Shown: positions 2,138-17,883 of the stretch, one piece after another
Layout of the letters: each line of letters starts with the position of its first letter
Position numbering within the stretch: the first letter of the stretch is position 1
From: Candidatus Krumholzibacteriia bacterium
Lineage (GTDB): Bacteria > Krumholzibacteriota > Krumholzibacteriia > JAJRXK01
Direction: 5' to 3'
NCBI GenBank assembly: GCA_041484665.1
Contig: JBGPIA010000003.1
Span: forward strand, 250,414 to 314,413
DNA length: 64,000 nt
Made by a program: the position numbers and the translations under genes
Notes under the pieces: generated by a model
What the model was told of the DNA's origin: nothing
Database searches by the model: none
What the model saw: the letters and a program-made list of their open reading frames with translations, nothing else

Positions 2138-2170
2138 AGAAGCAAAGGGCCGCCCCGGAGGAGGCGGCCC
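2138..2170 (-). terminator. Intrinsic terminator ending the putative ncRNA
   Basis: Minus strand GGGCCGCCTC-CTCC-GGGGCGGCCC followed by TTTGCTTCT. Confidence 0.7.
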
Positions 2171-2522
2171 TCGCACAAATGAGAGAGGGTGCGCAGTACC
2201 GGGAACCGCCCCAGTCGTGCCGCTCCTGGATCTCGCCATTCCAAGAGGGCGAAAGCGGCTCCTATGTTGGTGTCAGCGCACCCTTCTCGCCTGATGCGGA
2301 GGATTTCGAAGGATGGTCAGGAACGGATGCCTTCCTTCACTCCACCGCGCTCAACCCTGTGACCCCACCTCACAAGACAAGCGTGGTAGACCCAACTTGG
2401 AAGGGTCTCCTCATACAGCCGGTTAACCGAGAGGAGCCGCTCCCTTCCATCCTTCGAAACTCTCGAGCCCTCACGGGCTGCTTTGGACGACCGGACCACG
2501 ACTGCCAGTAGTGCCCGGCGCT
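2138..2522 (-). ncRNA. Putative novel, large structured ncRNA (~385 nt) transcribed by sigma54
   Basis: Bounded by a sigma54 promoter (predicted +1 about 2522) and a terminator. Helices seen: 5'/3' closing stem 2497-2518 with 2199-2219; perfect 13-bp helix 2447-2459 with 2304-2316; 10-bp helix 2432-2441 with 2254-2263; 9-bp helix 2276-2284 with 2186-2194; a GNRA hairpin AGCCC-GTGA-GGGCT; other local hairpins. No credible ORF. Confidence 0.7.

Positions 2523-16171: not shown

Positions 16172-17883
<1,712 letters not shown>

Follow-up and report, generated by a model that had tools for sequence, protein, structure and literature searches.

A modular sigma54-associated RNA family of Candidatus Krumholzibacteriota with predicted feedback on a neighboring activator gene

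Introduction

The DNA between a gene for a sigma54 enhancer-binding protein and a lipoprotein operon in a Candidatus Krumholzibacteriia genome raises the question of whether it encodes an RNA of its own and, if so, what this RNA acts on. We addressed this question computationally in a window, by which we mean the whole stretch of 64,000 nt analyzed (GCA_041484665.1, contig JBGPIA010000003.1, positions 250,414 to 314,413 of the forward strand), and in homologous loci of other genomes. The first-pass annotation of this region had described an unannotated, structured, sigma54-driven ncRNA of no known family, closed by pairing of its ends and folded through two pseudoknots. The former part of this description stands, whereas the closed, doubly pseudoknotted molecule gives way to a row of separate domains. 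Judging from its conserved loops and their complementarity to the activator leader, the RNA probably acts in trans on its own activator, as a feedback riboregulator that pairs loop to loop.

Gene Context of the RNA

The gene order around the RNA is constant: a candidate secreted-peptide gene is followed by the gene for a TPR-GAF-AAA+ sigma54 activator, the RNA, and a lipoprotein operon with a sigma54 site of its own (Table 1). Of the 30 loci first examined, 29 have the activator gene directly 5' of the RNA (the contig of the 30th is cut), and all 30 have the lipoprotein gene after it. The sigma54 consensus that had been read before the RNA is indeed present, and such a site precedes the RNA in 30/30 of these loci and in 59/63 of a larger set (152-186 nt upstream of the apical loop in homologues), while another precedes the lipoprotein gene in 30/30 and 55/58 loci, respectively; rpoN was found in 5/5 genomes tested. 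Sigma54 and sigma70-like sites were called by consensus words. The terminator proposed earlier was borne out as a hairpin, its U-tract being weak and the consensus terminator scan not listing it. Since the RNA has its own sigma54 site and a terminator-like hairpin, and the next gene has a separate sigma54 site, it does not appear to be a 5' leader or riboswitch and, on sequence grounds, is best read as its own transcription unit.

Table 1. Features of the RNA locus in the window.
Feature	Position	Strand	Remarks
ncRNA	2522-2138	minus	~380 nt here; about 310-415 nt in homologues
Sigma54 -24/-12 consensus promoter of ncRNA	2548-2534	minus	predicted +1 ~2522
5' domain	2521-2467	minus	local hairpin (2521-2487; GGCA loop conserved) followed by GUGA hairpin (2478-2467)
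Central domain	2460-2303	minus	long stem including 13-bp helix, three-way junction, side hairpin, long arm
ACCGGC loop of central side hairpin	2423-2418	minus	
Apical loop GGUGGGG of central long arm	2369-2363	minus	
3' domain	2296-2173	minus	closed by 2284-2276 with 2194-2186; ends in hairpin 2247-2223
Seed loop GGCGAGA of 3' hairpin	2237-2231	minus	
Terminator-like hairpin	2172-2138	minus	G+C-rich, short U-tract, P=0.99
Sigma54 enhancer-binding protein, 1034 aa	5856-2752	minus	TPR region, weak GAF, AAA+ Sigma54_activat, HTH_8 (Pfam)
Activator leader hairpin	5894-5859	minus	predicted to pair Shine-Dalgarno-like AAGGGA (5868-5863)
UCUCGCC in leader-hairpin loop	5876-5870	minus	predicted target of RNA 3' loop
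Two CTATCAA-containing repeats	2739-2725, 2668-2654	minus	candidate activator-binding sites
Candidate peptide-precursor gene, 114 aa	6314-5970	minus	directly 5' of activator gene
Core DGDPDDILGGN (G-D-P-x5-G)	6119-6087	minus	candidate mature signal
Sigma70-like promoter TTGACA-18 nt-TATCGT	6463-6434	minus	precedes peptide gene; read from sequence
Second sigma54 consensus site	1858-1844	minus	for lipoprotein operon
Predicted lipoprotein, 321 aa	1783-818	minus	first gene of envelope operon

The GAF domain of the activator is supported by a weak GAF_2 match in a homologue (Pfam, E = 0.005). In 26 of 58 homologues, a CTATMAA-type word resembling the putative activator-binding repeats of the window precedes the RNA. 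Sigma70-like hexamer pairs were read by eye at the peptide gene in 5/5 loci, and the one in the window would drive both the peptide and activator genes. The 321-aa lipoprotein has no Pfam match; it is followed (window positions 821-1; L127:9357-15235 and L128:14707-15669 in homologous loci) by genes for a DUF4384 protein and then a 1300-aa M6-like FG-GAP protein, which carries a T9SS-like C-terminal tail and, in some genomes, is followed by a PorV/PorP-like barrel gene.

The neighborhood contains further features of interest. An NtrX/NtrC-like response regulator with a sigma54 domain is encoded directly upstream of the peptide gene (7919-6543, minus strand), and such a regulator is encoded at the corresponding position in several families. 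A GTCC...GGAC inverted repeat (2037-2022), conserved in 36/58 loci, follows the terminator and precedes the second sigma54 site; since it is unlike the repeats 5' of the RNA, each of the two promoters may respond to an activator of its own. An A+T-rich word (2595-2579, minus strand) that resembles an IHF site, with similar words in homologues, separates the putative activator-binding repeats from the sigma54 promoter of the RNA, and a further sigma54-like match is found 43 nt upstream of the lipoprotein promoter (1901-1887, minus strand). In one metagenome homologue (L060:700-1200), the terminator is not directly before the lipoprotein gene, an unrelated reading frame standing there instead. 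Genome G000 encodes a DegP-like protease near the envelope operon and a second lipoprotein homologue on contig C54. The sole Rfam match within the window is a tRNA gene (16172-16245, plus strand).

A Structured RNA Family Without Rfam Match

The RNA has no match at the gathering threshold of Rfam 15, and at E ≤ 10 the one match is a chance match outside the RNA; no Rfam match was obtained in 11 homologous loci either. The earlier reading that the RNA is none of tmRNA, RNase P, SRP or 6S RNA was sustained: canonical copies of the first three are encoded elsewhere in the genome, none at the RNA locus, and the 6S model RF00013 has no match at E ≤ 1 in the whole genome. The raiA model RF03072 gives two weak matches elsewhere in the genome and none at the RNA locus. 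As noted before, G+C content is lower inside the RNA (58-61%) than in the flanking genes (62-79%), and the folding z-score of the RNA is -7.2. Positions 2175-2522 contain three perfect helices of at least 9 bp, a count reached by 0/500 dinucleotide shuffles, 2/500 of which reach a helix of 13 bp; since at least three such long-range helices also occur in 6 of 182 other 348-nt stretches of the window, helix counts alone are weak evidence in G+C-rich DNA.

The claim that no credible ORF is present also held. Two invariant anchors of the central domain are spaced 53-58 nt apart in homologues, a range that covers all three frames and thus marks the RNA as non-coding; no ORF is conserved, and a start codon after an SD-like GAGGU occurs in 2 of 58 homologous RNAs. 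Metatranscriptome runs of two studies (groundwater and freshwater) each contain one contig wholly inside the RNA. These RNA-library contigs of close relatives cover 2289-2511 with 7 differences and 2319-2509 with 9; the 13 changes listed comprise four at unpaired sites, six that keep a pair (two of them forming one G-C to A-U double change) and three that break one. As contigs do not reveal the strand, the ends or the level of a transcript, and the libraries may contain DNA, they are a weak hint of expression. Among the matches listed for both runs, no contig is at least 95% alike over the flanking genes, an absence that is not evidence.

BLAST identified relatives in 7 of 9 genomes of the window's family. 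With a covariance model of the RNA core (R2), which was rebuilt once on 32 sequences, a single copy per genome was detected in 8/8 genomes of family f1 and 55/61 of family f2 of Ca. Krumholzibacteriota, and none in 71 genomes of six other families, where the model missed divergent forms later revealed by synteny. A single match in family f6 (1/10 genomes; G034, E = 0.003) was dropped, since no activator gene is beside it. The same model had no match among 101 genomes from the phylum to which genome G155 belongs, a set with no positive control. Among exact-pattern matches, five of the seven true ones are titled Ca. Krumholzibacteriota or Krumholzibacteriia, while 20 of 27 genome matches, 41 of 44 metagenome matches and the one viral match were judged chance; among viral matches of the 3' loop, the second motif was found in 0/40. 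Loose 12-15-nt patterns proved too noisy for counting across the phylum, and the ESM Atlas gave leads below 0.9 only. We found no description of the RNA or the cassette in the literature searched, which leaves most subscription journals and preprint supplements outside it. Taken together, these results make it almost certain that the RNA represents a genuine and previously undescribed family of structured regulatory RNAs.

Three Domains in a Row

Folding and comparison of homologues resolve the RNA into three domains in a row plus a terminator rather than one closed molecule (Table 1). The 5' domain forms in 11/11 folds of the window's family, while the second family (f2) has a different 5' sequence. 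The three exposed loops are conserved among 59 RNAs (ACCGGC in 51, GGUGGG in 58, GGCGAG in 58), and GGUGGGG is fully open in the fold (P = 0.998). Both the GUGA and GGCGAGA hairpins of the first-pass annotation are present, as is its 13-bp helix, predicted at P = 0.999, for which 10 of 11 modeled pairs show double-sided changes.

The covariation that had been suggested as a check turned out to be strong. In a plain MAFFT alignment of 32 central domains, which was not fitted to a structure, 18 pairs are 82.9% paired and show 105 double-sided cells vs 44.5 in shuffled controls, and sliding the partner strand gives at most 53.8% pairing. In the model-fitted alignment, which leans toward the modeled structure, 46 of 49 pairs of the central domain change on both sides. 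The 3' module of the second family has 12 of 20 pairs changing on both sides at 94% paired.

The four complementarities from which the closed fold had been derived are all present on the minus strand, but they differ in what they form. The helix proposed to join the 5' and 3' ends (2497-2518 with 2199-2219) has P = 0.0 in the window and is not conserved; across 10 homologues, the expected number of pairs made by its 3' strand is 0-2.5 for the 5' end, as against 12.6-27.4 for the adjacent variable strand. One proposed pseudoknot (2432-2441 with 2254-2263) also has P = 0.0, uses bases of two covarying helices and is offered by homologues with 3-8 bp only; in the best fold, the 3' strands of this pseudoknot and of the closing helix form a helix together (2262-2252 with 2212-2202). 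The other was right as a helix (P = 0.995) and wrong as a pseudoknot, being nested and closing the 3' domain. The folding program is unable to model pseudoknots, so the case against them is built on strand competition and homologues. Two further candidate pseudoknots, CCGGU/ACCGG and UCGUC/GGCGA, were rejected, as they are uninformative in the window's family, where they are invariant, and lose their 5' strand in the second family. A second copy of GGCGAGA in the RNA (2291-2285, minus strand) is predicted to be paired in the free RNA, and the stretch around it also matches the start-codon region of the activator.

Fused and Split Modules in Divergent Families

Orthologues of the activator and the lipoprotein occur across the phylum. 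In families f4, f5, f7, f8, and f9, the corresponding position behind a sigma54-like site is occupied by an RNA with a long hairpin whose apical loop is again GGUGGGGU. In four of them (f4, f7, f8, and f9), the GGCGAGA hairpin belongs to a distinct unit of 95 nt in the intergenic region behind the activator gene, with a three-way junction and a TTGAC-type promoter in front; this RNA is highly conserved, carries the loops AUGGCGAGA and CAUCCCCUCC (L230, L231, L238, L225, L226, L227, and L234), and has no Rfam match in those loci scanned. Genome G076 contains a second, similar copy of the 95-nt RNA on another contig (L358). In family f3, both loops are within one unit.

CTCGCC is present in 3/3 f3 activator leaders, and CGCC in 10/18 f4 and 1/3 f7 leaders, while within 60 nt of the activator start CGCC was found in none of the leaders of f8 (0/3), f9 (0/1), f5 (0/3), and f6 (0/1). 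Five loci without a GGCGAG loop all have leaders without CGCC, which fits pairing of the two; however, 13 of 24 loci in four distant families keep the GGCGAG loop without a leader CGCC, which counts against it. A pattern search for a replacement target in f4, f7, f8, and f9 yielded none in the 30 loci examined of about 150 matches.

The splitting of the modules into two transcription units fits a modular regulatory RNA better than a compact fold. A compact, pseudoknotted large ncRNA of the raiA, ROOL or OLE kind with a structural or catalytic role would account for the size, single copy, strong covariation and RNA-library contigs, and the invariant short complementarities within the window's family might belong to such a fold. 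We nevertheless regard it as quite improbable, given that neither the closing helix nor the first of the two original pseudoknots is conserved, that the two further candidates each lose a strand in the second family, and that the modules are split or lost elsewhere.

Predicted Pairing with the Activator Leader

The GGCGAG loop of the RNA is the reverse complement of CUCGCC in the activator leader. Among the 60 leaders with an intact activator 5' end (four cut loci were left out), CTCGCC is positioned directly before the SD-like sequence in 59, the 60th having GTCGCC. It is the most conserved hexamer of these leaders, the next best reaching 30, and a control set of peptide-gene leaders contains it in 0/50. 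GGCGAG/CTCGCC is also the only hexamer pair conserved on both sides (58/59 RNAs and 59/60 leaders; next best 28), in genomes that are kin rather than independent samples.

Formally, the two hexamers are one double-stranded DNA word in opposite orientations, invariant at both places, and might therefore be sites at which a DNA-binding protein is bound. However, both copies are located in hairpin loops with covarying stems that use G-U pairs, which points to RNA rather than a DNA site and makes the latter reading very improbable.

The leader is predicted to present its hexamer for pairing. The pairing probability of the SD exceeds 0.5 in 57/60 activator leaders vs 26/50 peptide-gene leaders, while pairing of the CTCGCC motif is below 0.35 in 45/60 activator leaders, i.e., the motif is predicted to be in a loop. 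The folding energy of the whole leader is not unusual (median z -0.3), and the 5' arm beats shuffled arms at z < -1 in 51 of 58 distinct leaders. On the RNA side, GGCGAG is unpaired with P = 0.72, and when the whole RNA was compared without bias with the activator leader of the window, GGCGAGA/UCUCGCC came out as the best accessible duplex, at -8.5 kcal/mol. Against this pairing, the 7-bp duplex is outscored by 59 of 600 random leaders taken from this genome, mostly via GGUGGGG, and both halves of the seed are invariant, hence no compensatory change is seen. Nor did we find a cognate-specific extension beyond the seed, non-cognate RNAs being better in 45-48% of comparisons, and extended strand exchange with the SD side gave no signal.

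Modeling of the leader brings in a second site. A single kiss alone does not raise SD accessibility (0.12 to 0.07), while blocking both CTCGCC and a YCCRCY word raises it from 0.05 to 0.88. YCCRCY, which matches GGUGGG, is on the anti-SD side in 46/58 leaders, with a purine at its bulge in 45/49 leaders of the second family; its conservation is, however, largely explained by pairing in cis, which counts against a role in trans. For the window's family, the predicted pairing between the RNA arm and the anti-SD side beats shuffled controls in 6/9 cases, which speaks for activation.

The invariance of the loops while their stems drift would also be expected of a protein-binding RNA, whether a sponge, a scaffold or a 6S-like ligand of the sigma54 polymerase or of the TPR domain, in which the loops would be protein contacts and the leader match secondary. 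The fixed 53-58 nt spacing between two loops of the central domain, the lack of a detectable 6S RNA in the genome and the persistence of the GGUGGGG hairpin in families without a known target are consistent with such a role. Yet it leaves the exact reverse complement beside the SD in 59/60 loci unexplained. No Hfq was found in 5/5 genomes, CsrA was found in 2/5 (including one in G000) and is missing in 3/5, and ANGGA words number 0-5 per RNA. We therefore consider a protein-binding RNA unlikely.

A multi-target sRNA or RNA-RNA sponge with its main partners elsewhere, either the C-rich loop of the 95-nt RNA or C-rich mRNA leaders reached via GGUGGGG, appears slightly less likely still. The CAUCCCCUCC loop of the separate unit in f4, f7, f8, and f9 can give six G-C pairs with GGUGGGG, whose open loop is the commonest best seed vs random leaders. 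By contrast, the window's family is without a C-rich loop after the hairpin, and G-rich loops match pyrimidine runs easily. Genome-wide, CCCCACC shows no clear enrichment before starts. This reading and feedback on the activator can hold together. For CTCGCC before start codons, too, enrichment is not clear (42 vs 33 in a control window, second of 30 permutations, with home-made gene starts); a genome-wide CTCGCC regulon was rejected on this ground, and the result counts against the feedback reading.

Candidate Signal Peptide and the TPR Region

The gene upstream of the activator encodes a small protein with a hydrophobic N-terminus, a low-complexity linker, an acidic core and a hydrophobic C-terminal helix, which on this layout is a candidate signaling-peptide precursor. 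A heuristic search found such an ORF of 96-119 aa in 50 of 60 loci, the hydrophobic N-terminus being called by a simple rule. Among 49 aligned peptides (one miscalled ORF was dropped), G67 and D68 are invariant and P69 and G75 are conserved in at least 90%, at a mean column identity of 23%; GD[PAT]DD-like cores were also read in peptide ORFs of other families. The protein has no Pfam or NCBIfam family; a profile of it matches 276 relatives (E ≤ 0.001), and those listed are almost all about 100-115 aa long.

Structure prediction of the core peptide with the TPR region gave a complex score of 0.58 vs 0.01 for the best control, with runs agreeing in at least 66% of contacts and a partner pLDDT of at least 50. 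Of 157 solved pairs, 116 reach the mark for this score, as do 2 of 215 mismatched ones, and passes at or below 0.60 comprise 18 solved pairs and both passing mismatches. The model thus lends weak support to binding of the core peptide by the TPR region of the activator. The best PDB matches of the TPR profile are generic TPRs such as kinesin light chain, with RapF and NprR as weak matches (E about 7e-4).

Proposed Mechanism and Significance

Combining these elements, we propose a feedback circuit in which the activator would switch on the sigma54 polymerase at the observed consensus site, and the RNA would be made from ~2522 to its own terminator. It folds, as covariation shows, into three domains that display the loops ACCGGC, GGUGGGG and GGCGAG. 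The last of these would kiss CUCGCC in the SD-covering hairpin of the activator mRNA, the complementarity and its conservation being observed; such base pairing would be Hfq-independent. The kiss might open the hairpin, giving positive feedback, or clamp it, giving negative feedback. We slightly favor activation, since the SD is predicted to be closed by default, blocking of both sites frees it and YCCRCY matches GGUGGG. As its input, the TPR domain may sense the acidic core of the putatively secreted small protein, in which case the unit may be a peptide-signaling switch for the adjacent envelope operon.

A broader scheme would be phylum-wide peptide quorum sensing, in which a secreted acidic peptide acts on the TPR sigma54 activator and a modular loop-kissing RNA sets activator translation, the modules being either fused or split into a sigma54-transcribed and a sigma70-transcribed RNA with complementary loops. 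We put this forward tentatively, as it seems more doubtful than the feedback at the single locus. If true, it would extend peptide-TPR quorum sensing, described for Firmicutes, to a diderm candidate phylum.

The RNA of this locus enlarges the set of large regulatory RNA families by one that had not been catalogued and that, unlike most large ncRNA classes, has a concrete and testable predicted target. The proposed signaling architecture was not encountered in the literature searched: the sigma54 activator would carry a TPR sensor for a peptide encoded next to it, and RNA feedback would operate without Hfq. Families in which the modules are fused and families in which they are split together provide natural evidence of how a regulatory RNA with several domains is put together.

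Comparison with Known Systems

The RNA would work like Qrr and RNAIII, and the gene pair resembles the RRNPP signature, yet the locus belongs to none of these groups. The raiA motif RNA is a single-copy structured bacterial ncRNA that acts in trans; it is ~200 nt long, closed by helix P1, contains two pseudoknots and occurs in Bacillota and Actinomycetota (PMC12968392). Identity with raiA was rejected, as the locus has no RF03072 match and no conserved 5'-3' stem, and the candidate pseudoknots are unconserved. 6S RNA was set aside likewise, because there is no RF00013 match and the three-domain fold differs from a single ~180-nt rod with a central bubble. A CsrB/RsmZ-type sponge was rejected given the few ANGGA words, three conserved loops none of which is GGA, and CsrA in a minority of the genomes.

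Among NtrC-type sRNA loci, CrcZ of the CbrB/CrcZ system is a several-hundred-nt sigma54-dependent RNA directly behind the activator gene cbrB, and it sponges Hfq-Crc through repeated A-rich motifs. Here, unlike CrcZ, Hfq was not found, and the loops are single-copy and G-rich.

The Qrr sRNAs of Vibrio are ~100 nt long and Hfq-dependent, and their activator LuxO is controlled by phosphorylation. Qrr1-5 are transcribed by sigma54 polymerase with the enhancer-binding protein LuxO (10.1101/2021.07.01.450815) and act back on the mRNA of their own activator (PMC5394107). The present RNA resembles them, at the level of consensus, in its sigma54 site (30/30), adjacent enhancer-binding protein gene and rpoN. 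Pairing with its own activator's mRNA would be a further likeness, the complementarity being conserved but showing no covariation. It differs from them in its length of ~380 nt (310-415 nt), in the lack of a detectable Hfq in 5/5 genomes and in the TPR sensor of its activator, and has no sequence match to them.

RNAIII is driven by the response regulator AgrA, has C-rich loops and encodes a peptide. In Staphylococcus aureus, this large multi-hairpin RNA is the effector of the agr signaling system and by loop-loop pairing represses some mRNAs and opens the RBS hairpin of hla (PMC4691137). A large multi-hairpin RNA with conserved loop seeds is the common point, a resemblance in the way of working only. 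The RNA described here differs in its sigma54 site, G-rich loops, lack of a conserved ORF or Rfam match, and in that its predicted target is the activator itself.

In peptide-sensing TPR systems, the mature peptide is exported, taken up again and bound by the TPR domain; one of the regulators, AimR, acts through the ncRNA AimX. In RRNPP(A) systems (Rap-Phr, NprR, PlcR, and AimR), the gene of a small secreted protein adjoins that of a cytoplasmic TPR regulator, and a five-point signature includes a propeptide of 10-100 aa with a Sec signal, a receptor of 250-500 aa and a Firmicutes host (PMC10075063). The locus shares with them the direct neighborhood of propeptide-like and receptor genes and the TPRs of the receptor. 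However, the receptor here has 1034 aa with a sigma54 AAA+ domain, the host belongs to Ca. Krumholzibacteriota rather than the Firmicutes, and the candidate precursor, at 96-119 aa, carries an internal acidic core and a hydrophobic C-terminus.
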